Positions 3,729-24,784 are shown, counted from the first letter of the stretch. The stretch: DNA of 26,199 bases from an uncultured Candidatus Saccharibacteria bacterium (GCA_964426425.1 CAYRQI010000002.1:1-26199), one strand, 5' to 3'. Program-made: numbers and translations. The notes: a model not told the origin generated them from the sequence alone.

Positions 3729-4750
3729 CGTCTTCTATGATGCAATCGAACGCGCGTGTACTCGTCGTTGGACGGAGAACAAGGTCTCGCGTCCGACGCA
3801 CGCGCCCCCGTGGAGGAAGGACCGCCAAAGGCGGTGTTGGGAAACCGAGAGGTTTCCCAGACGGGGGTCGGGGGCGCGTGTTGCTTGTCGGTGGTTCTGA
3901 GGATTTTGTTGGCGCGCCGTATCTCGCAGGCATCTCGGCGCTCCGCTCCGGCGCCGAATCGGTCATCGTGATGGCTCCGGAGCGCGTTGCGTGGGCTATC
4001 AACGCACTCTCCCCCGATCTCATGACGCGAAAACTCAAAGGCTCACACCTCACGATGGCGCACGCGGAGACAATCAAAAAGCAAGCGGAAACCGCAGATA
4101 TCCTCGTGCTCGGTAATGGTGTCGGCATGAAGCCCGCGACAGAGAAGCTGATGCGCTTCCTTATGCGCCTTCCCATGCAAAAAGTGATAGATGCCGACGC
4201 ACTAAAGGCGCTTCGCAGCGCATCCGTGCAAAACGCGATACTCACGCCAAACGAAGGAGAGTGGCGCTCGCTCGAAACCCGAAGCGACATCCGCGCGCTT
4301 TTAAATAATAAGAACATTATTGTGAAGAAAGGATTTCCCACGAAAATACTCGCTAAAGGGCGGACGATCGTCATGCAACGAACGAATAGGGGCCTCCGGA
4401 AAGCTGGTACGGGAGATGTGCTCGCCGGTCTCATCGCCGGATACCTAGCGCAGGGACTCTCGCTGATCGAGGCCGCACAAGAAGCCTGCACGACAGGCAA
4501 TGCTATCGCCGACGTTCTCACAAAGAAAAAGAAAGGTTACTACTTCCTTGCAAGCGACATCGCGAAAGAGCTTAGTAGCATCAAAGCGAGAGCGGGAGCG
4601 CTCTTCCGTCTTAAGCGAGGAGGTGTTGTGTTGCGAGGGTCTTCGCGCAGGCCGACGAGGCCGAGCGGGAGCGCGGCGCGAGCACGCGCCGACGCGACCC
4701 GAGCAATACAACATCTCCGAGCGACTACTTCAATTTCCGGAAAAATCTAA
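3725..4750 (+). CDS. nnrD: ADP-dependent NAD(P)H-hydrate dehydratase (YjeF C-terminal / carbohydrate kinase family) with repeat-derived N-terminal insert and C-terminal tail
   Basis: GRVLLVGGSEDFVGAPYLAG..ALRSGA, LGNG, IDADAL, LTPNEGE and KAGTGDVLAG motifs. ATG 3725 overlaps the ATPase stop (ATGA); exact start uncertain. Confidence 0.85.
   Translation: MTSSMMQSNARVLVVGRRTRSRVRRTRPRGGRTAKGGVGKPRGFPDGGRGRVLLVGGSEDFVGAPYLAGISALRSGAESVIVMAPERVAWAINALSPDLMTRKLKGSHLTMAHAETIKKQAETADILVLGNGVGMKPATEKLMRFLMRLPMQKVIDADALKALRSASVQNAILTPNEGEWRSLETRSDIRALLNNKNIIVKKGFPTKILAKGRTIVMQRTNRGLRKAGTGDVLAGLIAGYLAQGLSLIEAAQEACTTGNAIADVLTKKKKGYYFLASDIAKELSSIKARAGALFRLKRGGVVLRGSSRRPTRPSGSAARARADATRAIQHLRATTSISGKI
3799..3880. 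repeat. Nested palindromic (REP-like) element inside the nnrD reading frame
   Basis: A 12-bp terminal inverted repeat CACGCGCCCCCG/CGGGGGCGCGTG encloses the hairpins ACCGCC-AAA-GGCGGT and TGGGAAACC-GAGA-GGTTTCCCA. An alternative 7-bp pair CCCCCGT/ACGGGGG spans 3805-3867 (63 bp). Confidence 0.8.
4615..4722 (+). repeat. Structured dispersed element, family A, copy 1
   Basis: 16-bp outer stem 4619-4634/4703-4718, GGGTC/GACCC stem, inner hairpins GGCC/GGCC and GGCGCG/CGCGCC, core AGCGGGAGCGC at 4664-4674. Homologous to 7362-7452 and 21222-21331. Confidence 0.85.
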
Positions 4751-5372
4751 ACAGCCGAGGAGTGAACGGCAACCGCGCTTGCCTGTACATCCAGAAGTAA
4801 CCGGCAATGCTTACGATGAGCGCTCCCGCAGCCGCCGCGACCAAATCCCACATCGTGTCGGCGTTGCCGTTTTGCCAATCGACGCCGAATATCGAATCAG
4901 CGGTAAATTCCACAAGTTCCCACACGACACCGATCGCGAGTGAGAAGGTTACCGAAAAAAATGATACGAAGCCCGGGCTCAAGTCGAGGTGAACTGACTC
5001 CTCTTCATTGAGTGTATACACCAAGACGAAGCCCGCGACACCGAGAATGAGACCGGACTGGAAATGGACAACCTTGTCCCAGAGCGGAATGTAATCATAG
5101 AAGTTCGCCAAATGACCAAGAAAGAGCGTCGCGAACACGAAACAGACTATTCCCAAATCAAGGGTAAATGGCAGATAGAACCGGTAGCGGTGCTTTAAGA
5201 CCGATGGCGCCGACATGAGAACGAAAACGAGCACCGTGCTGAAAACGGATGCCCAATCACCTCGAAGCCCGAAGTAGAGAGCCGCAACAAGGATAGCCGC
5301 ACGCAGCCCGTAATAGACAAAAAGCGTATAGCGGTTGCGGTACGCCTCCGATATTGCGGCAGAGTCCTCCAT
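4725..5372 (-). CDS. Multi-pass membrane protein, DUF2238/YjdF-like
   Basis: Several hydrophobic helices with the WDKVVHF..G, WELVEF..D and Q....DTMWDL motifs typical of this family. Confidence 0.75.
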   Translation of the reverse strand: MEDSAAISEAYRNRYTLFVYYGLRAAILVAALYFGLRGDWASVFSTVLVFVLMSAPSVLKHRYRFYLPFTLDLGIVCFVFATLFLGHLANFYDYIPLWDKVVHFQSGLILGVAGFVLVYTLNEEESVHLDLSPGFVSFFSVTFSLAIGVVWELVEFTADSIFGVDWQNGNADTMWDLVAAAAGALIVSIAGYFWMYRQARLPFTPRLFRFFRKLK

Positions 5373-5415
5373 AGAGAGATCGTAAGAGAGATCGTAGCAT
5401 ACGGAAATCTGCGAC

Positions 5416-5452
5416 CCGGGGGTTAACCCGAAGGTTTAACCTCCGGTAGACA
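5416..5452. repeat. REP doublet of the family flanking the RAYT gene
   Basis: CCGGGGGTTAACC-CGAA-GGTTTAACCTCCGG followed by TAGACA. Same half-sites and tail as 16630-16654 and 17352-17376. Confidence 0.8.
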
Positions 5453-5484
5453 TCTATTGAATCGCATTACGTAGTTTTTTTGTA

Positions 5485-5913
5485 TCAGTACCAAGCCCCA
5501 GCCCACGGGTCATACAGCCACTGGTGCGGATCGTAGACATAGTCCGGATAACATCCGTAGCCGCTGTAGCAGTAGTCATATGGGTTGTACCAATAACCGT
5601 ACGTATATGTCGGATAGTAGAAGTACGTGTCGTATGGGTAGTACCAGTAATCGTAATAGTATGTGGGATACGTATACGTCGGATACGAGTACGAGTACGA
5701 AGGATATGCGTATGACGAGTATGTGTACTGCGGCGCGCTCACATGCACATACGGAGATGTATTGATGTAGGTGTAAGGTGAGAAATTGTGGTACGAGTAG
5801 TTGCCGCTTGGCACCCGATACGGATACGAATAGTAGTACTGGGCGAGTGCCGGCGTTGGCGCGAGGATCGCGAGCACTCCAAGCAAGACACCATATGCAA
5901 GCGTCTGCTTCAT
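5485..5913 (-). CDS. Secreted tyrosine-rich low-complexity protein
   Basis: Signal peptide (MKQTLAYGVLLGVLAILAPTPALA). I count 42 Tyr in the ~118-aa mature part. TGCTACTGT lies 7 nt before the ATG. Confidence 0.8.
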   Translation of the reverse strand: MKQTLAYGVLLGVLAILAPTPALAQYYYSYPYRVPSGNYSYHNFSPYTYINTSPYVHVSAPQYTYSSYAYPSYSYSYPTYTYPTYYYDYWYYPYDTYFYYPTYTYGYWYNPYDYCYSGYGCYPDYVYDPHQWLYDPWAGAWY

Positions 5914-5996
5914 ATCTACAACAGTAGCAACATCGCGATACGCATGGCAAGAGGAGAATAAAGACGCGCCCTGTTTGTTATACTGCCGTCAACTCC

Positions 5997-6122
5997 ATGA
6001 CAAAAACTATGGCCATAACGCTTGGCATTCTTCTCCTCTTGAGTTTTTTGTTTTTTGTGTCGCCAGTGGGGCGATACGTCGCGAGCTCCCCCTTTTCAGC
6101 GATCCGACAGTTAGATTACTAA
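5997..6122 (+). CDS. Putative 41-aa single-TM small protein (below ORF-track cutoff)
   Basis: MTKTMAITLGILLLLSFLFFVSPVGRYVASSPFSAIRQLDY*. TGTTATACT extended -10 at 5976-5984. The stop overlaps the convergent gene's stop in CTAA, as at 9788-9791 and 16299-16302. Confidence 0.55.
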   Translation: MTKTMAITLGILLLLSFLFFVSPVGRYVASSPFSAIRQLDY

Positions 6123-7276
6123 TCCAATAATTCTGTGCCGCCCCACTCGACAACGCTGAATCCTCTTCGCTCGAATGGTTGTATCTCTTGCGGAGTAACA
6201 TCCTTGTAGTGATCAAGTGCCCTGAAAGCCATAAACACGCGCAGCATCGAATCTGGTTTCGGAGAAATAGAGAGCGGCGCGCTCTTCTCATATTCTTCGC
6301 CAACGAACTGAATGAAATTGTACGGATTGTCCTCCATCTTCGGAAGCCAGAAGACAATAAATTCATTGTACTCGCGAGGAATTAGACCCAATTCCGCCAG
6401 CTTTGTTTGGAGAAATTCACGCGTCTCGCTCCCCTTCACGACGAATCCTTTCGTTTCGTCTATGTTCAGATCGTATTCCTTCCCCTCCCAGAAGAGGTAG
6501 CTGTACTCTCTCCCGTCCGCGAGATTTATGAGCGTGCCATCAGGACGCGCTATCACCCGCCATCCTTCGATGGATTGGTTGTAGGAAGGATAGGTATAGG
6601 CAAGCATGCCACCGAACCGCAACTTCACGGAGACCTCTTGTGTGGTGGACGGATACAGATATATAACTGGCTTCTTGACGGCCGTCGGATATGCGTCGTA
6701 TGGATACCCGGTATCGATCCTCACCCAATCGCCGTTTTTGCATTGGTATCGAACGATCATTCCAGGATCACATGCAACGCAGCGCTGCATGGCCGAATCA
6801 GGAACGGCCGTTGCCGATTGATAACCCGAAAGAGGTGTAAAAGGCATAATCGTCCCTTCAGGGAAAGTCTGACCATTCCATATACACGAGGTTGTTTTCT
6901 GCGGCGGCGTTCTGCACGCGATAAGCTCGTCTTGGGTGGACTTGAGTTGCGTCTTTGTGAGCGCGAGTTCCGACTGCGCCGATGCGAGCGTCGCGTTTGC
7001 AGTGGAGAGCTGACTGTTCACGGACGAGAGCACGCTTTTAGTCGTCGAGAGTTCGGTGCGAGCAGCTGCAGCGTCTTTCTGCGAGGCGGAAAGCTGCGTT
7101 TTGAGGTCGGCAAGTTGCGAGTCGAGCATTTGAATGAGTTGTTTCTGGATCGCGATGATTTGATTAAACAACGAGAATGTTTGCGCGTAAAAGTCTTCAG
7201 TTGTAAGAGCGCTGGCAGAGAACGGGAGCAGAGCTGCAAGGGCAAGTGCCGCGGCCAACTTTCGTACGGAACGCAT
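6119..7276 (-). CDS. Secreted modular protein: signal peptide, coiled coil, Cys-containing linker, conserved uncharacterised C-terminal domain
   Basis: Heptad-like LADLKTQLSASQKDAAAARTEL stretch, CIWNG...CVACDPG...YQCKNGDW segment, and a KPVIYLYP...YLFWEG...RVFM...VVEWGG domain. TATACT lies 6 nt before the ATG. Confidence 0.85.
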   Translation of the reverse strand: MRSVRKLAAALALAALLPFSASALTTEDFYAQTFSLFNQIIAIQKQLIQMLDSQLADLKTQLSASQKDAAAARTELSTTKSVLSSVNSQLSTANATLASAQSELALTKTQLKSTQDELIACRTPPQKTTSCIWNGQTFPEGTIMPFTPLSGYQSATAVPDSAMQRCVACDPGMIVRYQCKNGDWVRIDTGYPYDAYPTAVKKPVIYLYPSTTQEVSVKLRFGGMLAYTYPSYNQSIEGWRVIARPDGTLINLADGREYSYLFWEGKEYDLNIDETKGFVVKGSETREFLQTKLAELGLIPREYNEFIVFWLPKMEDNPYNFIQFVGEEYEKSAPLSISPKPDSMLRVFMAFRALDHYKDVTPQEIQPFERRGFSVVEWGGTELLD

Positions 7277-7361
7277 GTAAAAAGTATAGAAGTCGGCAAC
7301 GGAATCGCAAATAAGTATTGGGGAAAAGACTGCCGCTATCTATCGTGTCTCGAGAGCCGAT

Positions 7362-7452
7362 AGCGAAGAGATATTGCATCGTGAGGGTCTTCGCGAAGGC
7401 GCGCGAGCGCCAAGCGGGAGCGCAGCGCGAGCACGCAGCGACACGACTCGAA
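7362..7452 (+). repeat. Structured dispersed element, family A, copy 2 (right outer arm decayed)
   Basis: GAGGGTCTTCGCG, hairpin GGCGC-GCGA-GCGCC, core AGCGGGAGCGC at 7413-7423, then GCGAGCACGC and GACTC. Confidence 0.8.
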
Positions 7453-7489
7453 AACAGATTGTGGCGGGATCGCATAAGGGTAATCCACG

Positions 7490-7518
7490 TTGCTCTGCAA
7501 GCGCTTGCAGTATATCCT
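7490..7518 (+). promoter_or_regulatory. sigma70-type promoter of serC with a perfect 16-bp palindrome in the spacer
   Basis: TTGCTC (7490-7495), 17 nt, TATCCT (7513-7518), 6 nt, ATG. CTGCAAGCGCTTGCAG occupies 7495-7510. Confidence 0.6.
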
Positions 7519-7524
7519 CCATTG

Positions 7525-8616
7525 ATGACGAGCCGCGTGTACAACTTTAGTGCAGGCCCTGCGGTGCTGCCCGAAGAAGTCCTCGCGAAGGCAAAGAGCG
7601 AGCTCATGGATTGGCACGGAAGCGGGATGTCTGTGATGGAGATGAGTCATCGAGGCGAAGAGTTCATCTCTATCGCAAAGGACGCGGAGGCGCGTTTGCG
7701 CGCGCTACACGAGATTCCCGACGATTACCACGTCCTTTTTTTACAGGGCGGCGCGTCGCTCCAATTTTCTGCGATACCCATGAATCTCCTGCGCGGGAAA
7801 AAACGGATGGCCTATATAGAGACCGGCGCATGGTCCGAGAAGGCGATCAAGGCGGCTAAACCTTACGGCGAAGTCAGTGTCGTGGCCTCCAGCAAGGCAG
7901 ACAAATATACAACCGCTCCCGATCTCTCCGATCTCCCGCTCGACGACTCTTTTGCCTATCTCCATTACACACCAAACGAAACTATTAACGGCCTGCGCTT
8001 GTTCGACATCCCCGACAGCAAGGGAGTTCCGCTTGTCGCCGACATGTCGTCGATGATTCTCTCCGAGCCAATCGACGTTTCTCGCTTCGCCCTCATCTAT
8101 GCGGGCTCCCAAAAGAACATTGGTCCTGCAGGCGTAACGATCGTTATCGTAAAAAAGGACTTCTGCGGTTATGCTACTTCCACCCCCCCCGACGTGCTCG
8201 ATTATGCCAAACAGGCGAAAGACGGCTCGATGCTCAACACGCCGCCGTGCTTTTCATGGTACATGGCAGGGCTCGTTTTCGAATGGATCGAGAACAATGG
8301 CGGGGTCGAAGCGATGCATAAGCGCGCCAAAGAACGCGCCAAAGTCTTGTATGATGCGATCGATGCATCAGGCTTCTATCGGAACCCCGTGGAAAAATCG
8401 TGCCGCTCACTCATGAATGTCCCCTTCGTGTTGAAAGATCCGTCGCTCGATAAAAAGTTCCTCACGGAAGCCGACGCGGCAGGCCTGAAAAATCTCGCTG
8501 GTCATCGATCGGTCGGTGGCATGCGCGCTTCCCTCTACAACGCGATGCCGCACAAGGGCGTGGAAGCGCTCGTGTCGTTTATGCGTTCCTTCGAGCAGAA
8601 ATACGGAACCACGTAA
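7525..8616 (+). CDS. serC: Phosphoserine aminotransferase
   Basis: YNFSAGPAVLP, SVMEMSHR, FLQGGASLQF, DMSS, YAGSQKNIGPAG, NTPP and GHRSVGGMRASLYNA motifs. True start taken as 7525, not 7318. Confidence 0.95.
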   Translation: MTSRVYNFSAGPAVLPEEVLAKAKSELMDWHGSGMSVMEMSHRGEEFISIAKDAEARLRALHEIPDDYHVLFLQGGASLQFSAIPMNLLRGKKRMAYIETGAWSEKAIKAAKPYGEVSVVASSKADKYTTAPDLSDLPLDDSFAYLHYTPNETINGLRLFDIPDSKGVPLVADMSSMILSEPIDVSRFALIYAGSQKNIGPAGVTIVIVKKDFCGYATSTPPDVLDYAKQAKDGSMLNTPPCFSWYMAGLVFEWIENNGGVEAMHKRAKERAKVLYDAIDASGFYRNPVEKSCRSLMNVPFVLKDPSLDKKFLTEADAAGLKNLAGHRSVGGMRASLYNAMPHKGVEALVSFMRSFEQKYGTT

Positions 8617-8624
8617 GCTCGACT

Positions 8625-9791
8625 ATGGCGATTGCTATCAAGACGTACAACAGCATTTCCCCCAAGGGCCTCGCCGTTTTTGCCAACGCAGACTACACGG
8701 TGGGTCCGGATGTCGTGGACCCTGCGGCGATACTGCTGCGCTCGCAGAATCTTCACAAAGAGACCATTCCTGTGAGCGTGCTCGCGATAGGCCGCGCGGG
8801 CGCGGGAGTTAACAACATCCCCGTCGACGAGATGAGCAGGCGGGGTATCGTCGTCTTCAATGCGCCGGGCGGCAACGCAAACGCGGTCAAGGAGCTCGTG
8901 CTCGGGGCGCTGATTGCGGCCTCCCGCAACATCGTAGAGGGTGTGACCTACGTGCAGGAACTCAAGAGCGAAGGCGAGGCGCTCACCAAAGAGATTGAAA
9001 CGGGCAAAAAACAATTTACCGGCATCGAACTAGAAGGAAAAACGCTGGGGGTGATCGGTCTCGGCGCGATCGGCGCCGCTGTGTGCAACGCTGCTGCCGC
9101 ACTCGGAATGCGGGTGATCGGATTCGATCCATACGTGACGCCCGAACAGAAGGCAAAACTCTCCCCTTCGATTCGCATCCTTGCCGACAGCAACGAACTA
9201 TTTTCGACGGCGGACGCTATCACCATGCATGTCCCCTATCTGCCCTCGACGCGCAATATGGTGAATGCCGATTCGCTTGCGCGGATGAAAAAGGGCGTTA
9301 TCCTCCTCAACTATTCACGCGATGGCATCGTTGACGATGCCGCGTGCATCGCCGCGATAAAAAGTGGCACGATTCGCCGCTATGTCACCGACTTCCCGAC
9401 TCGCGAGGTCATCGGCGTCTCGGGGATCATCACAACGCCCCACCTCGGCGCTTCGACCGAGGAGGCGGAAGACACGTGTGCTGTCATGGCGGCAAGCGAA
9501 GTGAAGGAATACCTCGAACATGGCACCATCATCAATTCCGTCAACATGCCGAAAGTGTCGCTAGCGCGAGGCGGTGTCGCTCGTATTGCTCTGATCCATG
9601 AGAACATCCCGGATATGCTTGGCGTCATCACGCACGTCTTGGGCGAGCGCGGCATCAATATCGAGGGAGCAAGCAATGGCGCAAAAGATGCGTACGCTTA
9701 CACGCTTCTCAACCTAAACATAAAACCCGACGAACACGTTCTTGCTTCCCTCCGCGCCATAGCGCATGTCATCCGTGTTCGTCGTCTCTAA
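8625..9791 (+). CDS. serA: D-3-phosphoglycerate dehydrogenase with C-terminal ACT domain
   Basis: RAGAGVNNIP, NANAVKEL, GVIGLGAIG Rossmann motif, DF, TPHLGASTEEAE, and ACT-like HENIPDMLG..T..LG..GINI. Directly follows serC. Confidence 0.92.
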   Translation: MAIAIKTYNSISPKGLAVFANADYTVGPDVVDPAAILLRSQNLHKETIPVSVLAIGRAGAGVNNIPVDEMSRRGIVVFNAPGGNANAVKELVLGALIAASRNIVEGVTYVQELKSEGEALTKEIETGKKQFTGIELEGKTLGVIGLGAIGAAVCNAAAALGMRVIGFDPYVTPEQKAKLSPSIRILADSNELFSTADAITMHVPYLPSTRNMVNADSLARMKKGVILLNYSRDGIVDDAACIAAIKSGTIRRYVTDFPTREVIGVSGIITTPHLGASTEEAEDTCAVMAASEVKEYLEHGTIINSVNMPKVSLARGGVARIALIHENIPDMLGVITHVLGERGINIEGASNGAKDAYAYTLLNLNIKPDEHVLASLRAIAHVIRVRRL

Positions 9792-10447
9792 TCCTCGATA
9801 AATTTAAGAAGATCGTTGAAGGATCGCGCGACGGCATCCGCATTTGCGACTACTTTGTCGCGATAGACATGCTCGGTGTAGGCAACGAACGTGTCTGCAG
9901 CGCCTTGCTTCTTGATCTCATAGTCGGTCCAGCCGTCGCCGATTATGACGCGCGGAGATGGGAGGGAGGCGCTTGTGATGGCGACGATCTTTCCACCTTC
10001 TTGCGCCGTGGGACGCTTCGCGATTCCTGTTGCAATACCTCTCTCGTACACAAATGCATTGGCAAATGTGTGAGCAGGGTCCAGCCCGAGTGTCTCGGCT
10101 ACCGGCGCGATGATTTCCTCGAATCCGCCGGAAATAATATGGATGCGCTCCCGGTTCGTCTGCAGGTATGCGCGATGCGCGAGAAATGACGGTGTGATGT
10201 GATGAATCATTTCGCGAGCGATTCGCGCGACACTCTCGCGCGAAGGAGAGATAAGCGCCATGCGGCGCGCAAGCGATTCTCCAAAAGGTATGGCGCCCTC
10301 CATACCGAGCTCCGTGATGCGCTTCACTTTGGCAACAATCTCTTCGCGATCAGATCTTCCGGCAAGAGCGACCTCGGATAGGAGATCGAGAGTTTCGCAA
10401 TCCACCATCGTGCTGTCGAAGTCGAATATGACGGAAGCAAATTTCAT
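9788..10447 (-). CDS. serB: HAD-IB family phosphatase, probable phosphoserine phosphatase
   Basis: FDFDST motif I, ITELGMEG.IPF.ESL..R cap, ISGGF, IGDGWTD. Convergent with serA (4-nt overlap). Confidence 0.8.
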   Translation of the reverse strand: MKFASVIFDFDSTMVDCETLDLLSEVALAGRSDREEIVAKVKRITELGMEGAIPFGESLARRMALISPSRESVARIAREMIHHITPSFLAHRAYLQTNRERIHIISGGFEEIIAPVAETLGLDPAHTFANAFVYERGIATGIAKRPTAQEGGKIVAITSASLPSPRVIIGDGWTDYEIKKQGAADTFVAYTEHVYRDKVVANADAVARSFNDLLKFIED

Positions 10448-10561
10448 ACGGTGGCAGTTCCTAACTTAAATGCTGTCTACCTTATACCTTTTCGGCAGAG
10501 TCGCCTGCCAGCACGGCCCAATTGTACCCTATTCCCGACCGCGCATTTCTATTCCCATACC

Positions 10562-10599
10562 TTACTACTTTCTTGAACCATGGTATGAAAGAGTAGTAA
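10562..10599. repeat. 38-bp imperfect palindrome abutting the stop codon of the PaaX/Cas2-like gene
   Basis: TTACTACTTTCTTGAACCA|TGGTATGAAAGAGTAGTAA; 14/19 arm positions are complementary. Shares TACTCTTTCrTACCATGGT (18/19) with 11213-11250. Confidence 0.8.
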
Positions 10600-11232
10600 T
10601 TAGCGCACCCCGAAATGTTTCTTGAATGCGGCATCATTGCCGATTGACTTTGCTACAACCATTCGAAGTTCCTTCTCCGTTAAATCAAACAAAGATTTCA
10701 AAAGATCAATTTGACTAGAGCAGTCGAACGGATATAGCCAAACACTTTTTTGCACCATGACAGCGCCAAGTCGACTCACAAGCGCACGAAACGCATTGCG
10801 CTTTGAACGCTCCTCTGCAGAAATATCAAACATTATGATGCGCCAGCATTTGTCCCACACTGGAGGAGTTTCCACAGGCTTTAAGAGAGCGCGTTTGATT
10901 CGCAACTGAGTGCCATGCTGCTTGCCCCTTTCTGTAAGTTCTATGCGTATGCCTCTTCCGTCTTTTCTAGTTCTAGTCGTTACGCGGACATATTTTTTCC
11001 GTTTGAGGTATTGAAATGAGTTGTTTAGTCTCTTTCGACGAATGTTGTCGTTGTCCTTCAAAGCATACCCAATTCCTGCAAGAACAGCAAAAAGTGTCGG
11101 AGCGAAAGTGAGCCCTCCCACTATGCCGCCTCCTATCAGTAGCGCCTCGAGCAAACCGCGCGGCGTGTCGTCGAACAGATAATCACGTTTGCCCTTCTTT
11201 GGCGATTGTACGATGTTACTCTTTCGTACCAT
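10600..11232 (-). CDS. PaaX-like protein: N-terminal hydrophobic segment, winged helix, Cas2-like (PaaX central) domain
   Basis: FQYLKRKKYV...IELTERGK wHTH-like segment and WDKCWRIIMFDI...R..FR..V..LG..MVQKSVWLYP domain. Start taken at 11232 (TGTTACACT 8 nt upstream). Confidence 0.85.
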   Translation of the reverse strand: MVRKSNIVQSPKKGKRDYLFDDTPRGLLEALLIGGGIVGGLTFAPTLFAVLAGIGYALKDNDNIRRKRLNNSFQYLKRKKYVRVTTRTRKDGRGIRIELTERGKQHGTQLRIKRALLKPVETPPVWDKCWRIIMFDISAEERSKRNAFRALVSRLGAVMVQKSVWLYPFDCSSQIDLLKSLFDLTEKELRMVVAKSIGNDAAFKKHFGVR

Positions 11233-11250
11233 GGTATAGAAGTGTAACAT
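11213..11250. repeat. 38-bp imperfect palindrome centred on the start codon of the PaaX/Cas2-like gene
   Basis: ATGTTACTCTTTCGTACCA|TGGTATAGAAGTGTAACAT; 15/19 arm positions are complementary. It covers the -10 box and the ATG. Confidence 0.85.
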
Positions 11251-11274
11251 GAGGTATGCTCCGCGGTATCTTCG

Positions 11275-13704: not shown

Positions 13705-13766
13705 TGCGGCAGTATACGAAAGAAAGAGCAAAAATCAAAAATCACATTGCACATGACAAATCTCCC

Positions 13767-13919
13767 AAGCGAGACGGGAGTGTTTCCTCGATGAGGCTTT
13801 GTTCGAGATTCGAGCGACACGAAACAGGCGCTATGAGACGAGCCCCCGCCGGCACAACATTCGCTAAAGTCCGGGGTCGGTGCCGCGAGTCCCGAGGCGG
13901 GGAACACTCCCGCCGAGCG
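13767..13919 (+). repeat. Longer structured element (family B) with the same terminal motifs as family A
   Basis: AAGCGAG-a-CGGGAGTGTTTCC ... GGGAACACTCCCG-c-CGAGCG: a 13-bp outer stem with one G.T pair, plus internal short inverted repeats. Confidence 0.65.
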
Positions 13920-14003
13920 CCCCCTGCCCTTCATGCTGGATTCAGAATCAGCGTGGTGTACTATGATTGGTGGTGTCCCTATTGGTCACGCACCTTCACG
14001 CGT

Positions 14004-14195
14004 ATGACCGAATCACGAACCCCACAGGAGATGGCACATGCGGCTCGAGGCTCGCTTTCTGTCATACGTTTGACGACTGAAACGCTCCTCGAAAAGGGCC
14101 ATGATGAAGAAACGCGGGCTGAACTCGAAACCATCCTGAAGCAGGTCGACCAGCTCGCAGAAATCATGACCGAGCTCTCTCGGACAAGAAGATGA
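14004..14195 (+). CDS. 63-aa stand-alone HisKA/DHp-like protein
   Basis: EMAHAARGSLSVIRLTTETLL...ELETILKQVDQLAEIMTEL resembles the H-box two-helix domain. Ends 1 nt before the kinase ATG. Start taken as 14004, not 13704. Confidence 0.7.
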   Translation: MTESRTPQEMAHAARGSLSVIRLTTETLLEKGHDEETRAELETILKQVDQLAEIMTELSRTRR

Positions 14196-14196
14196 T

Positions 14197-16302
14197 ATGC
14201 CAGCATTTTCCGGGCGTGCATACGCATTCTCACTCGTGATCGTTTTTTTCACGTACCTCGGCACGGCGCTGTTTGGTTTCAGCATTCAGCCGGTGAATAC
14301 GTTTGCGACACTCATCTGGGCGCCAACTGGCATCGCGATCGCCGCGCTCACGCTCGGCGGGTATCGTTTGTGGCCTGCAGTGTTTCTTGCGGCTTTCTCT
14401 GCAAACTTCTATATCGGTGCGCCTCTTTTCGTTGCGTTGGGGATCGGCATCGGGAACACGCTTGAAGCGCTCGCTGGCTCCTACGTGCTCAGAAACTTTC
14501 GCTCGGGCTCCCTCGAATTCTCGTTCGGGAACCTCAAGGAGACAATGGTCTTCATCTTCGGCGCTGCGCTCGCCGCTCCGCTCATAAGCGCGAGCATAGG
14601 CGTGTTGAGTCTTACGCTAGGCAACATCATTCCCTCCACCGAAATCGACCGCACGTGGATCGCGTGGTGGGTGGGTGATGTGCTCGGCGCACTCATTGTC
14701 GCTCCATTTCTCTTGCGCTGGCTCTCGGAGCCCTACTTCCGCATGAATATGCTCCGTTCCGCAGAGATTGTCGCGAGTGCGGCAGCATCGGGACTCGTCG
14801 CGTGGCTCGTCTTCTGGAATCAAGACATGGCAGCGCCGTACCCCGTGCTTATCCCGCTCGTGTGGGCGGCACTTCGTACTGGAGAGCGTGGCATCACACT
14901 CTCGATACTCGTGCTTTCGACCGTGGCGATATCAGGAACACTCGCCGGAGGAGGACCGTTCCGGGAACTCCCCCTCGAGAGCGCGCTCCTGCAGCTCCAG
15001 CTCTTCCTCGGTACCATAGCGACCATCCTCCTCGTGTTCACCGCTGTCGTGGAGGACAGGCGGCGGACGGCGGGCGCGCTCGAGAAGCATGTGGGAGAAC
15101 TCGAAGGCCTCCTCGAGAGGTTCCGGGTCGAAGACACCGCCAAAAACGAGTTCATTGCGACACTTGCCCACGAGCTGCGAAACCCGCTTTCCCCCATCGT
15201 AAGCTCCATAGAACTACTGAAGCGCAGCGATACGAGCAGCATCGCCCGTCAGGCACTCATCATGGAGAAACATGCAAAGAGCCTCTCGAGTCTCCTCAAC
15301 GACCTTCTCGACGTTTCGCGCATATCGACGCACAAGCTCGAGATCGAGAAGAAGCCCGTGTACCTGAGCGCTCCCGTAGCACAGGCGATTGAATCCGTCG
15401 AGCCGCTCATGCGCGAGAAAAACCATATCCTCAATGTCTCGATCAATCCTCACCCCATCCTGCTCGAGGCCGATCCTGTGCGCCTCGAGCAAATTGTCGT
15501 GAACCTCCTTACGAACGCTGCAAAATACACGCCCACCGGAGGAACGATCACGCTCTCCGTCACGCGAGAAGGACGGGAGGCAGTGATCGTTGTGCAAGAC
15601 ACCGGCATCGGTATCGAAAAGAATATGCTCGGCCGCATTTTTGAGCCCTTCCTCCAGATCAAGAGAGCAAATTCTGTCGAAGCCGGCATCGGCGTCGGCC
15701 TCACGGTCACCAAGAGACTTGTTGAGCTCCATGGCGGAACCATCACGGCAAAGAGCGAGGGAGAGGGAAAAGGGAGCGAATTTTCCGTTCGCCTGCCACT
15801 GCCTCCGCCCGGCGCATTCACCGAGAAAGAGAAAGTACCGAAGCAAGCGGCAAAGCGTCGGCGACCTCTCCCGCGCTTGCGGATTCTTGTCGTGGACGAC
15901 AACGTTGACGCCGGGAATGCCCTCGGGAAGCTCCTCGGTATACGGGGACACGAGGTAACCCTTGCGCAAGATGGAGGCAGCGCGCTTCGGATGGCACCGC
16001 TTATCGATCCTGACATCATCATTCTCGACATCGGCTTGCCGGACTTCGACGGCTACGAGACCGCACGCCGGCTCCGGAAGGCAAAATTCGATTGTCCTCT
16101 GATCGCACTCACCGGCTATGGGCAAGAAGAAGACAAGAAAAAAGCGAAAAATGCCGGATTTGCGTATCACCTCACAAAGCCCGTTTCACTCGCAACAGTT
16201 GAAGAAGCGCTCTCGAAGATTGTCGTAGGCGGAATTCTCAAGAAACCGCCCGTGAAGATGGAGGCCATCACCAAAGCACCCGCGCAATTTGCGCAGAGCT
16301 AA
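14197..16302 (+). CDS. Hybrid sensor histidine kinase: MASE1-HisKA-HATPase_c-REC
   Basis: MASE1-like IWAPTGIAIA...GNTLEAL...WWVGDVLG, LAHELRNPL H-box, NLLTNAAKY, DTGIGI, GIGVGL, and a receiver with VVDD...DIGLP..DG...TGYG...KP. Confidence 0.93.
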   Translation: MPAFSGRAYAFSLVIVFFTYLGTALFGFSIQPVNTFATLIWAPTGIAIAALTLGGYRLWPAVFLAAFSANFYIGAPLFVALGIGIGNTLEALAGSYVLRNFRSGSLEFSFGNLKETMVFIFGAALAAPLISASIGVLSLTLGNIIPSTEIDRTWIAWWVGDVLGALIVAPFLLRWLSEPYFRMNMLRSAEIVASAAASGLVAWLVFWNQDMAAPYPVLIPLVWAALRTGERGITLSILVLSTVAISGTLAGGGPFRELPLESALLQLQLFLGTIATILLVFTAVVEDRRRTAGALEKHVGELEGLLERFRVEDTAKNEFIATLAHELRNPLSPIVSSIELLKRSDTSSIARQALIMEKHAKSLSSLLNDLLDVSRISTHKLEIEKKPVYLSAPVAQAIESVEPLMREKNHILNVSINPHPILLEADPVRLEQIVVNLLTNAAKYTPTGGTITLSVTREGREAVIVVQDTGIGIEKNMLGRIFEPFLQIKRANSVEAGIGVGLTVTKRLVELHGGTITAKSEGEGKGSEFSVRLPLPPPGAFTEKEKVPKQAAKRRRPLPRLRILVVDDNVDAGNALGKLLGIRGHEVTLAQDGGSALRMAPLIDPDIIILDIGLPDFDGYETARRLRKAKFDCPLIALTGYGQEEDKKKAKNAGFAYHLTKPVSLATVEEALSKIVVGGILKKPPVKMEAITKAPAQFAQS

Positions 16303-16556
16303 TGTAGGTGCGCGGAGACGAGTTTCGTCATCTCAAACATCGACACCTGGCTCTTTCCTCCGAAGATGACCTTGAGCTTCTCGTCCGCGTTGATATTGCG
16401 TTTGTTCTGCTGGTCCTGGAGCCCATGTTGCTTGATGTACTCCCACAACTTCTTCACAACTTGCCCGCGAGGCATTGGCCCCTTGCCCACAACCGCCTCG
16501 AGCTCGCTCGAGAGGTTCATCGGCTTTAGTAATGCAGGATTGGCCTTTCTAACCAT
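16299..16556 (-). CDS. SWIB/MDM2 domain protein
   Basis: LSSELEAVVGKGPMPRGQVVKKLWEYIKQHGLQDQQNKRNINADEKLKVIFG...MFEMTKLVSAHL. Start taken at 16556; the ORF-track extension reads through the REP. Confidence 0.92.
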   Translation of the reverse strand: MVRKANPALLKPMNLSSELEAVVGKGPMPRGQVVKKLWEYIKQHGLQDQQNKRNINADEKLKVIFGGKSQVSMFEMTKLVSAHLH

Positions 16557-16629
16557 AGCAATGGTATTAGCTGGTAGACCTCTAGTGTAGCGAATCAAAC
16601 AGCTGTGCCAGCGCCTCGCTGTGGATAGA

Positions 16630-16654
16630 CCGGAGGTTAAACCTCCGGTAGACA
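16630..16654. repeat. REP hairpin upstream of rayT
   Basis: CCGGAGGTT-A-AACCTCCGG followed by TAGACA. Confidence 0.9.
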
Positions 16655-16682
16655 AGTCAAAAACATGTTATCCTATACTTAC

Positions 16683-17363
16683 ATGGTGACCAGAGAACCG
16701 TGCGTGACCGACGAGTGGTACCACTGCTACAATAGAGGCGTCGACAAACGAATCGTCTTCGAGAGGCCGGCACACTATGAGCGCTTCATATCTCTCCTCT
16801 ACGCAAGTAACGGCACCAAGTCAGAAGTCATCTCCGAAAGATTCACCACCGACCTGACATCGCTCCTCAATGACAGATCGATAGACAGAGGCGATCCTCT
16901 GGTCGACATCGGCGCCTATTGCCTTATGCCGACCCATGTGCACCTCATTCTCAAGCAGCTTCAAGACGGTGGCATCGCTCGCTTTATGCAAAAAGTCTTC
17001 ACGGGATACACGATGTACTTCAACGTGCGAAATGAACGCGCGGGCGCCCTGTTCGCGGGAACGTATAAAGCAAAGCACATCGATGATGATAACTATTTGA
17101 AGCTGGCAGTACCATACGTCCTCCTCAACCCGCTTGAATTGTTCGATTCAACGTGGAAGAAAGGGGGAGGAAATTTGAGAGTTCTGGAGAACAAGCTATT
17201 GGCATATCCGTACTCAAGTGTGCGAGCATTTTTACGGCACGATTGTCCGGAAAGAAAAATCACAGGCAACTCACTGTATGACTACTATGACCGTGTGCCG
17301 GATCTGGCGACGATGATGCGCGAAGCGAAAGAATACTACCGAAGCATTCATCCGGAGGTTTAA
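16683..17363 (+). mobile_element. rayT: REP-associated tyrosine transposase (Y1/HUH, TnpA-REP/RAYT type)
   Basis: WYHCYNRG, AYCLMPTHVHL (HUH), FMQK...YTMYFN..R.G.LF.G.YK, YVLLNP (catalytic Tyr region) and YPYSS. Flanked by identical-family palindromes. Confidence 0.9.
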
Positions 17364-17376
17364 CCTCCGGTTGACA
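17352..17376. repeat. REP hairpin overlapping the rayT stop codon
   Basis: CCGGAGGTT-T-AACCTCCGG followed by TTGACA. The TAA stop (17361-17363) starts at the hairpin apex. Confidence 0.9.
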
Positions 17377-17423
17377 GAGTGAGATCTAATTACGTCGTGA
17401 GGTAAGAAGGTGCTCGCGCCAAA

Positions 17424-18572
17424 CTAGCGCCATTCCTTCGCAATCTCCCACGTTATCTTCACGAGCGCACCGAGCGTGAGAAGCATGAGAATGAACTGTG
17501 CGAGCCAGCCGACGATGGGGATGAGCCCCAGCACCGCGTAGATGAACACGCCAAGGAGGATCGATTTCCAGCTCACGTCGAACTCACCACTAAAGAAACT
17601 GCGATACGCAAAACTCCCGAGAAGAACGGGCGTCATGATCCAGAGGTAAACAATGACTGTTGCGAATAGCAGCAGTCCGAGGAGTCCAAGCGGAATGCCA
17701 AGGAGCGACCACAAGAGCATCATCGATGCAACCGGCAGCACGATCACGACGACGAGCCCACGGCCAACCTCTAAGAGAGGTTGCGCGGCCGCTACTTCGA
17801 CAAGCCGTACCGCGTAGCGTCGGAACACGAGGCCAAGCAGGAGTGCCGAGGCAAGCTGTGCAAGCGTAGTGGCGATAAGCGCGACTGAAATAATGGCAAC
17901 AATCCCGCCGACGGAAACTGTCCGTTCCCGCTTCTTGAAAGTTACCTCGCCCTCTACCGAGGCGCCCTCTTCCATCTCCGCTTCCTTCGCTGCCGTAAGG
18001 AAGAGATCGCCGCGAATCTTCGCGCCCTGCCCGAGCGTCAGCGTCTCCGCGAACACTTCGACATTGCCCGCAATCGCAGAATTCAGGTAGACGTCGCCGC
18101 CGCCGATGCGCACGTTGCCGCCGACAGGAGCGTCGAGCCGCACCGTCCCGCCACCTACCACGAGATCGCCCTTGATATTGCCGCCGATATTGAGCTGTCC
18201 ACCTCCAATAACGACATCACTGCCTACATTGCCCCGGAGCAAAATAGTTCCTCCCACTGCGCGTACGTCGTCACTCACGCTGCCAAGAATGGTCACCGTG
18301 CCTCCCGCGGCCGCAACATCGCCACCAACATTCCCGCCTACGACGACAGTACCACCCGCCGCCACGAGGTCAGCACCTACGCTGCCATCGCTTGAGACGT
18401 TCCCGCCTGCGATGTAGACATCCTCTATGATTCGTTCTTCTGCATTGATAGAGGGCTGATCTCCCGTGCGAAGCTCCGCCGCCTCCCCCATGCCGGGAAT
18501 GAGCGAAAGAACGAGGAAGAGACCCGCAAGTAGTGCGAGAAGTCGGATGTTGAGTTTCCAGCTCGCCTTCAT
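17424..18572 (-). CDS. Exported bactofilin-like (polymer-forming) beta-helix repeat protein with C-terminal multi-TM region
   Basis: Signal peptide, about eight 15-aa repeats of type D(V/L)xxxGGxVxxxGxV, then several hydrophobic helices. TGTTACCCT lies 8 nt before the ATG. Confidence 0.8.
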   Translation of the reverse strand: MKASWKLNIRLLALLAGLFLVLSLIPGMGEAAELRTGDQPSINAEERIIEDVYIAGGNVSSDGSVGADLVAAGGTVVVGGNVGGDVAAAGGTVTILGSVSDDVRAVGGTILLRGNVGSDVVIGGGQLNIGGNIKGDLVVGGGTVRLDAPVGGNVRIGGGDVYLNSAIAGNVEVFAETLTLGQGAKIRGDLFLTAAKEAEMEEGASVEGEVTFKKRERTVSVGGIVAIISVALIATTLAQLASALLLGLVFRRYAVRLVEVAAAQPLLEVGRGLVVVIVLPVASMMLLWSLLGIPLGLLGLLLFATVIVYLWIMTPVLLGSFAYRSFFSGEFDVSWKSILLGVFIYAVLGLIPIVGWLAQFILMLLTLGALVKITWEIAKEWR

Positions 18573-18660
18573 ATGGCTCTAGGGTAACATGCCGATTTGT
18601 GTCGTGCACATGTTCGAGTCGCCCTAGATGGGGGACCAAGGACCGTGTGATCGATGTTGT

Positions 18661-19095
18661 CTAAATCGACTGTTTCTCTTTTTCCGCCTCGTAGATGCGA
18701 CGCCGAAGCTCCGTCGTCGAAAAGCCGTGATCGCGCGAATTGAAGTACATCTCGATAGGTAGATCGTGCCCCGTGTATAGTTTCCCCTTCCAGTCCGCAC
18801 CGATAATGCGAATATCGAAACCATATGTGTTCTCCTTCAAAATTCCATAGAGTTGCGCTTCTGTGTCGTACTCGAAAATCTCGTCGATGTATTTGATCGC
18901 TTCGAGAATGATCCTTCGCTCCGCAAGCGACATAATGGGCTTGTTCTTCTCTGGCCTGTCGATGGATGGATCAGATTGGAGCCCAACGACGAGATAGTCG
19001 CACACGCTCTTAGCCTCCTTGAACATCAAGATATGTCCCGCGTGACAAAGGTCGAATGCACCAACCGTTACGCCAACTTTTTTTCCGTTTCGCAT
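18661..19095 (-). CDS. Cytidylyltransferase family protein (TagD/glycerol-3-phosphate cytidylyltransferase-like)
   Basis: GAFDLCHAGH (HxGH), DYLVVGLQSDP, KPIMS..ER and FSTTELRRRI. Real start 19095; the ORF-track extension to 19986 is antisense to other genes. Confidence 0.9.
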   Translation of the reverse strand: MRNGKKVGVTVGAFDLCHAGHILMFKEAKSVCDYLVVGLQSDPSIDRPEKNKPIMSLAERRIILEAIKYIDEIFEYDTEAQLYGILKENTYGFDIRIIGADWKGKLYTGHDLPIEMYFNSRDHGFSTTELRRRIYEAEKEKQSI

Positions 19096-19131
19096 TGGGA
19101 AATAGAATACCACGCATGCTAGAATGCGCGA
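19096..19131. promoter_or_regulatory. 36-bp back-to-back divergent promoter pair
   Basis: Minus-strand TGGTATTCT (19112-19104) 8 nt before ATG 19095; plus-strand TGCTAGAAT (19117-19125) 6 nt before ATG 19132. Confidence 0.65.
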
Positions 19132-19695
19132 ATGCTCGCGCTCCTCGCGTCCTATGAAAAAGACGAAGGTCTCCTTCGTCTTGGGACTCTGCTGAAAAAT
19201 GCGGGATGGAAGCTTCTTGGATCGGCGGGCACCGCGAAGTATCTGAACGAAAATGGCGTCCTTTGCCGCGACGTCGCTGAAATCGTGGGCCCGCCCATTC
19301 TTGGCCACCGCGTTGTGACGCTTTCGCGCGAGCTTCATGCGGCGCTGCTTTCGACTCCGAGCGACATGGAAGAAATGAAAAAGCTTGGCATCGAGCCCAT
19401 CGACCTTGTGTACGTCACGCTCTATCCCCTCGAAAAAGCGATCCAGAGCGGCGCAGAGAGGGATGATGTGGTTGAGAAAACAGATATCGGCGGTCCGACT
19501 CTTCTGCGCGCCGCGGCAAAAGGCAGACGAATCGTTCTTTCCTCTTCGAAGCAGTTGGATGAATTTGAAAAACGTCTGGTGAACGGAACGACTGATGACG
19601 AGAAATACCGCGCCGCGCTCGCCGCTGCCGCAGAGCGCCGTGTCGCGGAGTACGTTGCGGCGTCGGCAAATTATTGGGAGAAACAAACAACATAA
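19132..19695 (+). CDS. Stand-alone PurH N-terminal (MGS-like / IMP cyclohydrolase) domain protein
   Basis: SAGTAKYL, RV.TL, IDLVYVTLYP and DIGGPTLLRAAAK motifs. Stops at 187 aa with no AICAR transformylase domain. Confidence 0.85.
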   Translation: MLALLASYEKDEGLLRLGTLLKNAGWKLLGSAGTAKYLNENGVLCRDVAEIVGPPILGHRVVTLSRELHAALLSTPSDMEEMKKLGIEPIDLVYVTLYPLEKAIQSGAERDDVVEKTDIGGPTLLRAAAKGRRIVLSSSKQLDEFEKRLVNGTTDDEKYRAALAAAAERRVAEYVAASANYWEKQTT

Positions 19696-19699
19696 CACA

Positions 19700-20422
19700 A
19701 TGCCGAAACATTTCTTTTTCGATGTCGACAAGACGCTTACGCCAAGCAGGAGTCTCATGCTCGAGGAACACCAGCTGATCTTCGGCCGTCTGTGCAAAGC
19801 AGCAAACGTGGTCGCCGTGTCTGGCGCACAAGAATCGCAGATTAGGGCACAAATCCCGCACGCCTTCGATGGGCTGTATTTTGTGCTTGCGCAGAACGGC
19901 AACCATGCGATCGACAAGAATGGTTCGACGCTTTGGAGAGAAGAGCTTCGCGACAGTGAGATCAAAGCTATTATGGAGTTCATCAAAAAAATACGAGCAG
20001 AGTTGGATCTTCAGGTAAAAGACGAGAACGATCTTATCGAGAATCGAGGCTCGCAGATCAGCTACAGCTTGATCGGACACCATGAAGATCTGGAAAAGAA
20101 GAGTGCATTCGATCCCGACGCCTCACTCCGACGAAGCATCCTCGAGCGGCATTCGACCGATTTGGAAAAACTCAAGGAGAACAAAGTCGAGGTGAAAATC
20201 GGTGGCACTACGACGTTGGATTTCTTCTCATGGGGGAAAAATAAGGGCTTTAACATCGCACGCTTCATAGAAAAGTACGGCTGGAAAAAAGAAGATTGCA
20301 TCTACATCGGCGACGCGCTCTTCCCGGGCGGCAACGACGAAATGGTTATTGGCATCATTCCCACCCGCTCGGTGAAAGACTACCACGAGACATACGCGTA
20401 CCTCAAAAGCATATTGAAATGA
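19700..20422 (+). CDS. HAD-IIB family hydrolase, eukaryote-type phosphomannomutase-like
   Basis: FDVDKTLT, VSG, QNG, IENRGSQIS, GGTTTLD, KNKG and YIGDALFPGGND. Start taken at 19700. Confidence 0.85.
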   Translation: MPKHFFFDVDKTLTPSRSLMLEEHQLIFGRLCKAANVVAVSGAQESQIRAQIPHAFDGLYFVLAQNGNHAIDKNGSTLWREELRDSEIKAIMEFIKKIRAELDLQVKDENDLIENRGSQISYSLIGHHEDLEKKSAFDPDASLRRSILERHSTDLEKLKENKVEVKIGGTTTLDFFSWGKNKGFNIARFIEKYGWKKEDCIYIGDALFPGGNDEMVIGIIPTRSVKDYHETYAYLKSILK

Positions 20423-21189
20423 CTACGCCTGCACCAGCGCTCGAAATACGCAACCTCAAGAAAACATATAAAAGCGGCACGGAGGCGCTGAAAGGCGTAT
20501 CGCTCACTGTTCCCGTCGGCGACTTTTACGCGCTCCTTGGCCCCAACGGTGCTGGAAAAACGACCCTCATCGGCATTGTCACCTCGCTTGTGAACAAGTC
20601 CGGCGGCACGGTAAAAGTATTCGGCCATGACATCGATACCGATTTTGAGAAGGCAAAAATCTACATCGGTCTCGTGGGACAGGAGATAAATTTCAACCCC
20701 TTCGAGAAACCGATTGACATCGTCGTCAATCAAGGCGGCTACTATGGCATCCCGCGCTCGAGGGCAATACCGCGGGCGGAAAAGCTCCTCAAGGACTTAG
20801 GGCTCGGTGACAAAATGAATCAGCAAGCCATGCAGCTTAGCGGCGGCATGAAGCGCCGATTGATGATCGCTCGCGCACTCATCCATGAGCCGAGCTTTTT
20901 GATTCTCGATGAGCCGACCGCCGGCGTGGACGTCGAACTCCGACGAAGCATGTGGGATTACCTCCGCGGCATCACGGCAAAAGGCGTCACAATTCTTCTC
21001 ACCACCCACTACCTCGAGGAAGCCGAGCAGCTCGCCAAACATGTCGCCATTATCAACAAGGGCGAGATAGCCGCGGCGGGAAGCATGGAGGAGATCCTCG
21101 CGCTGCACGATGAAGAAGAGGCCGGAAAACACGGCTATCGCGGCGGGAAGCTGGAGGAAGTTTTTCTGCAACTTACCAAGGAGAAGTAA
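20419..21189 (+). CDS. ABC transporter ATP-binding protein (ABC-2/YadG-like)
   Basis: GPNGAGKTT, LSGGMKRRL, LILDEPTAG and TTHY. ATGA overlap with the upstream HAD gene gives start 20419. Confidence 0.93.
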   Translation: MTTPAPALEIRNLKKTYKSGTEALKGVSLTVPVGDFYALLGPNGAGKTTLIGIVTSLVNKSGGTVKVFGHDIDTDFEKAKIYIGLVGQEINFNPFEKPIDIVVNQGGYYGIPRSRAIPRAEKLLKDLGLGDKMNQQAMQLSGGMKRRLMIARALIHEPSFLILDEPTAGVDVELRRSMWDYLRGITAKGVTILLTTHYLEEAEQLAKHVAIINKGEIAAAGSMEEILALHDEEEAGKHGYRGGKLEEVFLQLTKEK

Positions 21190-21221
21190 AATGATATGAA
21201 CATTTCCTCCAATCAGCAAAA

Positions 21222-21331
21222 GCGAGCCGGGGCGTGTGTTCGATGGGGTCTCGCGCAGGCCGGCGGGCCGAGCGGGAGCGCTGCGCGAACACGCGCAGAT
21301 AGCGACCCCAGCGAGCACATGCCCCGCGAGC
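21222..21331 (+). repeat. Structured dispersed element, family A, copy 3
   Basis: Outer stem GGGGCGTGTGTTCG/CGAGCACATGCCCC, GGGGTC/GACCCC, hairpins GGCC/GGCC and CTGCGCG/CGCGCAG, core AGCGGGAGCGC at 21271-21281. Confidence 0.85.
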
Positions 21332-21338
21332 AAATCCT

Positions 21339-24778: not shown

Positions 24779-24784
24779 GTTTTT

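Follow-up and report, generated by a model that had tools for sequence, protein, structure and literature searches.

The stretch of DNA analysed here (the window; 26,199 nucleotides, CAYRQI010000002.1:1-26199 of assembly GCA_964426425.1) is contig C2 of an 837-kb genome with 54% G+C and 92% completeness, labelled G000, and it carries several copies of a branched hairpin of about 110 nucleotides (nt). These copies probably belong to a gene-less, mobile, hairpin-forming palindromic DNA family of Candidatus Kaiserbacteria (Parcubacteria, Candidate Phyla Radiation (CPR)). The element behaves as a non-autonomous mobile element and not as a host RNA gene. Copies were scored with R1, a covariance model of the 68-nt core, and those present in the window, including a remnant and a related element, are listed here.

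4613-4723, + strand: copy c1, full element (core 4635-4702; R1 score 88.2 bits)
7362-7452, + strand: copy c2, decayed (core 7383-7451; R1 score 72.7 bits)
21220-21331, + strand: copy c3, full element (core 21243-21310; R1 score 73.5 bits)
4584-4601, + strand: remnant of a second copy, AAGCGAG joined straight to internal AGCGGGAGCGC
13767-13919, + strand: related element with another interior; the ends AAGCGAG plus stem and stem plus CGAGCG are kept

The mobility of the element is apparent from its copies in related genomes. Three identical copies are present at unrelated loci in genome G008, and the limits of their identity coincide with the foot of a 29-bp stem, while genome G031 holds two pairs of near-identical copies. 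The subfamily of c1 comprises nine copies in four genomes (c1 and eight from three others), and among these the similarity is confined to the segment from AGCGAG to CGAGC(G). No recurrent protein family was found among the genes neighbouring the copies.

Copy c3 is located between an ATP-binding cassette (ABC) ATPase gene (20296-21189) and an ABC-2 permease gene (21339-22121), and this junction was compared in 80 relatives. It is empty in 56 of them, mostly with the stop and start codons 1 nt apart or overlapping, and it is occupied by an R1-type element in seven (the own genome included), by a variant with an AGCA-loop hairpin in four, by a mini-hairpin with AAGCGAG...CGAGCG ends in one and by other hairpin elements in six. 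Unrelated hairpins of 117-140 nt, either AT-rich or with ATGCCCGGTAG arms, were observed at the ABC junctions L047, L052, L072, L118, L057 and L119. In the permease tree, the R1-type state requires at least six changes. The empty sites in relatives that the initial annotation had proposed to look for are thus present: the c3 site is sister to an empty site (support 100/97), and the closest relative, L045, with a permease that is 93% identical, is empty. The ABC junction is a hot spot for palindromic elements, by repeated insertion or by repeated precise emptying, since repeated hits and many precise emptyings both imply this.

Short direct repeats flank a number of copies. At c3, a duplicated start-codon region is found.

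21195-21199, + strand: left copy of TATGA, with the right copy at 21338-21342

This pair is probably a decayed target-site duplication. Other flanking repeats, 7-9 nt long, are TATGACGC (L071), GATATGAC (L087) and TCTATGA (L058) at the ABC junction, and TTTTGGAA (a copy on contig C16 of the own genome) and TATCCCATT (L145) were observed as well. At the orthologous loci L149 and L190, about 9 nt (CTACCTCCA) abut both feet of the element, and the site is empty in G014 and in the own genome. Overall, 15 direct repeats of at least 8 nt were observed around copies, compared with 5.9 expected. This signal is real, though by no means present in all copies; a target duplication of 8-9 nt is likely, but not proven. 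The possibility that the leader before AGCGAG is a long duplication of the permease 5' end was rejected; the leader scores 6.7 against the own permease and 5.9 against others, which indicates that only the short repeat is duplicated.

The family is widespread in the genus of the host and rare outside it. The covariance-model search suggested in the initial annotation resulted in eight R1 matches in the own genome; of the 60 species genomes in the genus, 46 have copies, with 1-16 copies per genome. Outside the genus, 4 of the 40 other families searched in the order have copies, and of 150 genomes sampled from the class, seven had R1 matches, most of them weak. The element is present in 51 of 101 relatives. 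The bare hairpin measures about 105-125 bp, and the range with longer versions is about 105-165 bp. A strict scan of the own genome for the terminal motifs gave a result no better than control motifs. At gathering thresholds, Rfam 15 gave no matches across the window, in line with the earlier statement that the element could not be assigned to a named family. At E values up to 10, c1 and c3 gave only chance microRNA (miRNA) and small nucleolar RNA (snoRNA) matches, far below threshold, and no ribozyme. A full-text literature search found no paper on small mobile repeats in CPR bacteria.

The three copies of the window had been reported on the + strand in the initial annotation, and this was confirmed by alignment over the shared core. 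The core common to c1, c2 and c3 includes AGCGGGAGCGC and GGGTCTTCGCG.AGG, corresponding to the invariant core and the GGTC(T)TCGCG.AGG segment described earlier. AGCGGGAGCGC is exact at 4664, 7413 and 21271, with an additional exact match at 4591 inside the remnant, and when up to one mismatch is allowed, eight matches are found against 1.4 expected. Read from 5' to 3', c1 has AAGCGAG followed by an outer stem of 16 bp; a GA/GA internal loop then leads to the core with its three-way junction, after which come the return stem and CGAGCG. Both c1 and c3 fold as a long hairpin enclosing a three-way junction. The RNA minimum free energies on the + strand are -77.2 kcal/mol for c1 and -78.6 kcal/mol for c3 (z -9.7 and -7.0 against shuffles), whereas the - strand is 14-16 kcal/mol weaker (-61.1 and -64.1 kcal/mol, respectively). 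Folding with DNA parameters ranks the strands alike, with -43.6 and -45.6 on the + strand versus -36 and -37 on the - strand for c1 and c3. The feet of c1 and c3 start with G-C and C-G pairs, followed by the tandem G.A of CGAG opposite CGAG, and in c1, a second GA/GA separates the outer stem from the core; both this closure and the second tandem had been noticed before, and the stems quoted for the copies pair as claimed. Copies c1 and c3 are full hairpins, and c2 is degenerate, which had not been pointed out. Copy c2, upstream of a serC-like gene, has a recognisable core, has lost its outer stem and folds no better than shuffles (z -0.68).

Across the family, the anatomy from 5' to 3' is AGCGAG, outer stem, three-way junction, return arm and CGAGC. 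The outer stem is 14-20 bp long, and its sequence varies by subfamily while the pairing is kept. In the junction, P2 is GGGTC/GACCC, P3 has a GCA/GA internal loop and a GNCG loop, and P4 has an AGCA tetraloop and bulged A's. The stem of P4 changes completely from copy to copy with a constant AGCA loop. The invariant loop nucleotides are GCAG, CGAG, GAGCG, the AGCA loop and GAC(A)GCGAC. The tips of the element are not true inverted repeats: the left GCGAG faces the right CGAGC, and both ends read CGAG on one strand.

Compensatory change around a fixed core, first proposed from the three copies of the window, was also observed in further copies. Covariation was measured on two separate sets of 42 and 61 copies aligned to R1. 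As these alignments were made by fitting to the model, and as the copies are related to one another, the covariation numbers overstate independence. Standard pairs occupy 95.6% of the cells in the 42-copy set and 96.7% in the 61-copy set, compared with 35-47% when the partners are slid. Both-sided changes are present in 17 of 23 pairs, and the number of double-change cells is 147 and 262 in the two sets versus 34 and 68 in shuffles. The outer stem lay outside the R1 model. In 113 distinct copies, its oppositions are 1480 Watson-Crick, 134 G.T, 26 A.C and 58 other.

The excess of G.T over A.C bears out the preferred folding strand that had been deduced from the G.T mismatches of c1 and c3. Strand-symmetric mutation would give equal numbers of G.T and A.C. 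In the outer stems, G.T exceeds A.C in 63 copies and A.C exceeds G.T in 11. The orientation of copies relative to genes was studied for 99 copies with both neighbours called, using a crude caller of open reading frames (ORFs). With this caller, 31 copies are opposite to both genes, 26 have the same direction as both, and 42 are mixed, lying between convergent or divergent genes; a bias relative to gene direction was thus not observed (26 same versus 31 opposite). The G.T excess is present in every class; the G.T and A.C counts are 48 and 7 for copies opposite to the genes, and 29 and 6 for copies in the same direction. A cause in transcription or replication would make the excess depend on gene direction, and no such dependence was observed; as the excess is found on the element's own strand whichever way the genes run, one strand of the element is selected for folding. 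This strand asymmetry does not fit a host mRNA signal.

The alternative that the copies are host-serving structured RNAs, either an mRNA processing or stability signal or a multi-copy small RNA, is considered unlikely. The strong covariation, the invariant loop nucleotides and the position of copies right at gene ends would all fit such a role, and so would the orthologous element at L149 and L190, where the outer stem is paired despite changes at 5-6 positions on both arms. The element at these loci is 68% identical, similar to the coding flank with 70%, and the core of L190 is breaking down. Template switching with arm-to-arm correction is known for quasi-palindromes, and such correction could explain paired changes without function. 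Many cores decay after insertion while the long stems stay paired. In addition, a transcript of the 31 copies opposite to both genes would be the weaker complement, yet these copies have the same G.T excess. The bare-hairpin subfamily lacks a common upstream promoter, presence at orthologous sites is patchy with the closest relatives empty, and no consistent gene class is found near copies. The sequencing runs that hold the locus are DNA runs only. Of the candidates given in the initial annotation, the mRNA stability element and an undescribed non-coding RNA class both fit poorly with the random orientation to genes, the patchy orthologous sites, the decay and an in-frame insertion in a gene (described below).

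Another improbable alternative is a single-stranded DNA element resembling repetitive extragenic palindromic (REP) sequences and the inverted doublets formed by them (REPINs), which a REP-associated tyrosine transposase (RAYT; Y1/HUH type) would cut at CGAG on both feet. This would account for the strand-specific fold and for the presence of CGAG at both ends of one strand. RAYT-like genes are also the sole transposase-like class met in most genomes of the group (they occur in 83 of 101 relatives, and a single genome has up to 15 matches). Four common DDE families (DDE_Tnp_1, PF01609; Transposase_mut, PF00872; rve, PF00665; DDE_Tnp_ISL3, PF01610), the only ones searched, were not found in G008, G031, G014 and G016, which carry recent copies. 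In the own genome, the RAYT-like query gave six matches, of which four are clear paralogs and two are weak and partial (contigs C49 and C22). However, each of the four clear paralogs is bracketed by its own short REPs, none of which is element-like. Examples are CCGGAGGTTWAACCTCCGG, at 16629-16654 and 17352-17376 in the window, and ATGATTGATTTACGAAATCAATCAT on contig C14; the other RAYT contigs are C3 and C53. The flanks of the two weak partial matches contain no REPs. The initial annotation had already stated that the element is unrelated to the REPs beside the local RAYT (CCGGAGGTTWAACCTCCGG), and the sequences are indeed unlike. No copy was found beside a RAYT gene. With this query, the element is present without a RAYT match in G079 (11 copies), G012, G002, G036 and G092, and many RAYT-bearing genomes have no copy. 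The flanking direct repeats of 8-9 nt and the lack of orientation bias to gene direction also speak against this alternative; Y1 transposition, as in IS200/IS605, is not known to make direct repeats of this length. On present evidence, mobilisation by RAYT is not supported, given the paralogs' own REPs and the lack of an adjacent copy; co-occurrence over 101 genomes is loose. From the earlier suggestion of a non-autonomous HUH-mobilised element, the non-autonomous mobile character stands, and the HUH part is not supported.

An RNA-mediated (retro-)element, with the junction acting as a ribozyme or as the fold that a reverse transcriptase recognises, is very unlikely. The strand-specific fold independent of gene direction, the random orientation and the varying apparent length of the direct repeats (5-10 nt) are compatible with it. 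Of the 60 genus genomes, 24 have the reverse transcriptase domain RVT_1, yet it was not found in the copy-rich G014, G016 and G013, nor in G008, and no ribozyme was matched in Rfam even at the relaxed E value. No A-rich tail and no series of 5'-truncated copies was seen.

A longer version of the mobile element has also been found, in which the hairpin lies between terminal inverted repeats (TIRs) of 17-19 bp (TAGAGCATGTTTGAAAA) with CTAG or TTAG flanks. This version is present in 27 of 60 genus genomes and absent from the own genome. The interiors between TAGAGCATGTTTGAAAA repeats are interchangeable: some have the R1 core, some have a variant three-way junction, and others consist of unrelated sequence. 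A miniature inverted-repeat transposable element (MITE) family with TAGAGCATGTTTGAAAA, 155-165 nt long, was observed in G039 (L201-L205), G010, G040 and G031, with up to 31 repeat matches in the 0.9-Mb genome of G039. No autonomous version was recognised: two TIRs that lie 1.4 kb from each other in G039 have no recognisable transposase or RNA between them, a TIR pair at 3.9 kb in G040 encloses ordinary genes, and in the own genome, a search for GCGAG plus arm and arm plus CGAGC at 0.3-4 kb gave only noise.

Taken as a mobile element, the hairpin itself, of about 105-125 bp, would be the mobile unit. An enzyme supplied in trans would make a staggered cut at the target, and propagation would require that the element's own strand folds as a single strand, be it DNA or RNA; such a requirement may account for the tolerance of G.T, and not of A.C, on this strand. 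The copies are inserted at the boundaries of genes or in their ends, in both orientations and often between 8-9-bp direct repeats, and they persist only where the host tolerates them. A tentative and rather doubtful extension is that the three-way junction (the AGCA loop and three tandem-G.A motifs included) serves as the recognition module of an undescribed structure-specific pathway that acts on one folded strand and makes 8-9-bp duplications. If true, the variable arms would be free to drift, and only the fold and about 6 nt per foot would be read.

Several observations weigh against a mobile palindromic family of this kind. A transposase with matching ends was not found, though metagenome-assembled genomes often lack copies of insertion sequences (IS), which makes the negative result for the four DDE families weak evidence, and many copies have no clear direct repeat. 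A plain MITE moved by double-strand cut-and-paste would not be expected to show so strong a single-strand asymmetry, and a transposase that binds double-stranded DNA would not obviously need CGAG on the same strand at both ends. Conservation of the loop nucleotides extends over species whose proteins are about 70-80% identical, which fits a function too.

The insertions in the window have affected the ORFs in which, or between which, they are located.

4574-4720, + strand: in-frame 49-codon insertion, made up of the remnant and c1, in an NnrD-like ORF (3701-4750)
21196-21342, + strand: 48-codon bridging ORF through c3

In the NnrD-like protein, the Carb_kinase domain ends at residue 291, and the insertion is located in the C-terminal tail. 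Seven relatives do not have the insertion, and their proteins end 5-15 residues past LASDIxxEL. After the insertion, the native tail resumes with TTSISGKI, which resembles VSSRSGKV of G016. With this query, the NnrD-like gene was observed in 8 of 61 genus genomes. The bridging ORF at c3 starts with an ATG 7 nt past the stop codon of the ATPase gene, and its TGA overlaps the ATG of the permease gene (ATGA). The equivalent ORF is open in all 12 GC-rich junction inserts, compared with 2 of 12 and 1 of 12 for the other frames. The bridging peptides are not conserved, and the core is read in two frames, so that translation itself is kept and not the peptide. The simplest purpose of reading through the hairpin at the junction would be to keep the translation of the two genes coupled; ribosomes that finish at the ATPase stop may be passed on to the permease start by the mini-ORF of c3. 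Stop codons are scarce in the hairpins on either strand, and 205 of 318 frames are open. That the copies encode a small protein, with the hairpin being incidental, is hardly credible and is already contradicted by frame differences between copies: ORFs of 39-50 codons span all GC-rich ABC-junction inserts, but at least two frames are used, the peptides differ, copies lie in both orientations and also in non-coding places, and substitutions track base pairing and not codons.

Decay by internal deletion was observed next to c1 and elsewhere. The remnant at 4584-4601 corresponds to an internal deletion combined with a 3' truncation, and the same type of deletion is present in G016 at a locus where G014 has a full copy (L144) and contig C14 of the own genome has only a remnant. 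The deletion in G016 joins AAGCGAG to CGGGAGC. No clean empty site was found for the G014 copy; the relatives hold deleted remnants. The recurrent deletion, seen at 4584-4601 and on contig C3 of G016 at about 17.9 kb (L219), joins the 5' AAGCGAG to internal CGAGCGGGAGC and probably arises by slippage between two CGAG repeats.

Other elements and genes were observed as well. The interior of the related element at 13767-13919 is about 110 nt long and unlike the R1 core. Mini-hairpins with AAGCGAG/CGAGCG ends are present at the L085 ABC junction and, in G031, within the left arm of copies L128 and L129. The window also contains purB-, purC- and purM-like genes (22435-25921) and serC-, serA- and serB-like genes (7524-10447). 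Such biosynthesis exceeds the usual gene content of CPR bacteria.

CPR genomes of about 0.8 Mb, tiny and tightly packed, would thus still carry active selfish hairpins. These elements reshape gene ends, as seen from the new C-terminal peptide of the NnrD-like protein and from the mini-ORFs that would relay translation within an operon. For genome annotation, the copies inflate ORFs and create false small genes, and in searches for RNA motifs, they yield strong covariation without a host RNA gene. In a MITE-like element, a conserved fold in the interior, and not the termini, can be the defining feature. One point of real interest is the signal of strand selection independent of host transcription, which offers a handle on the mechanism of mobilisation.

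Multiple known systems resemble the element in part. With REP/REPIN-RAYT systems, it shares dispersed hairpins, a short conserved foot motif, a preferred strand and RAYT-rich genomes, but REPs are 20-40 nt long and bracket a RAYT gene, whereas the element is about 110 nt long, with a branched core and direct repeats. Palindrome-associated transposable elements (PATEs) of the IS200/IS605 type make no target duplication and have a replication-tied bias, in contrast to the direct repeats and the lack of gene-direction bias found here. Like prokaryotic MITEs, the element is small and multi-copy, has no coding capacity for a transposase, is polymorphic in its presence at orthologous sites and has near-identical copies at separate loci. 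The element differs from them in that no parent IS with these ends was found, the arms vary by subfamily and the tips are mismatched as GA/GA.

Rickettsia palindromic elements (RPEs) are palindromes of about 100-150 bp in a reduced genome that are inserted in-frame in housekeeping genes and translated (PMC10969869). The in-frame position of c1 in the NnrD-like gene, with 49 codons, is shared with RPEs as a likeness of working and not as sequence membership. The host phylum is different, most copies here are intergenic, and the centre is conserved while the arms vary. Moreover, a G.T strand excess was measured here, and some copies have flanking direct repeats.

Enterobacterial repetitive intergenic consensus (ERIC) repeats, also called intergenic repeat units (IRUs), and the Correia elements of Neisseria are gene-less, imperfect palindromes of about 100-200 bp and represent transcribed hairpin MITEs (PMC10969869). 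Short intergenic operon sites, either orientation, flanking duplications and the lack of an own transposase are shared with these elements, and terminal inverted repeats are found in one version of the present element as well. ERIC and Correia elements have conserved terminal inverted repeats, and Correia elements have a TA duplication. In contrast, about 6 nt per tip are conserved here, which are non-complementary (GA opposite GA), and the repeats are about 8-9 nt. Effects of RNase III or RNase E and promoter activity are features of ERIC and Correia elements, while the element described here is known from sequence. In kind, the element is known, being similar to MITEs, RPEs and ERIC-like elements, and its architecture is unusual in that the internal fold is kept rather than the ends.

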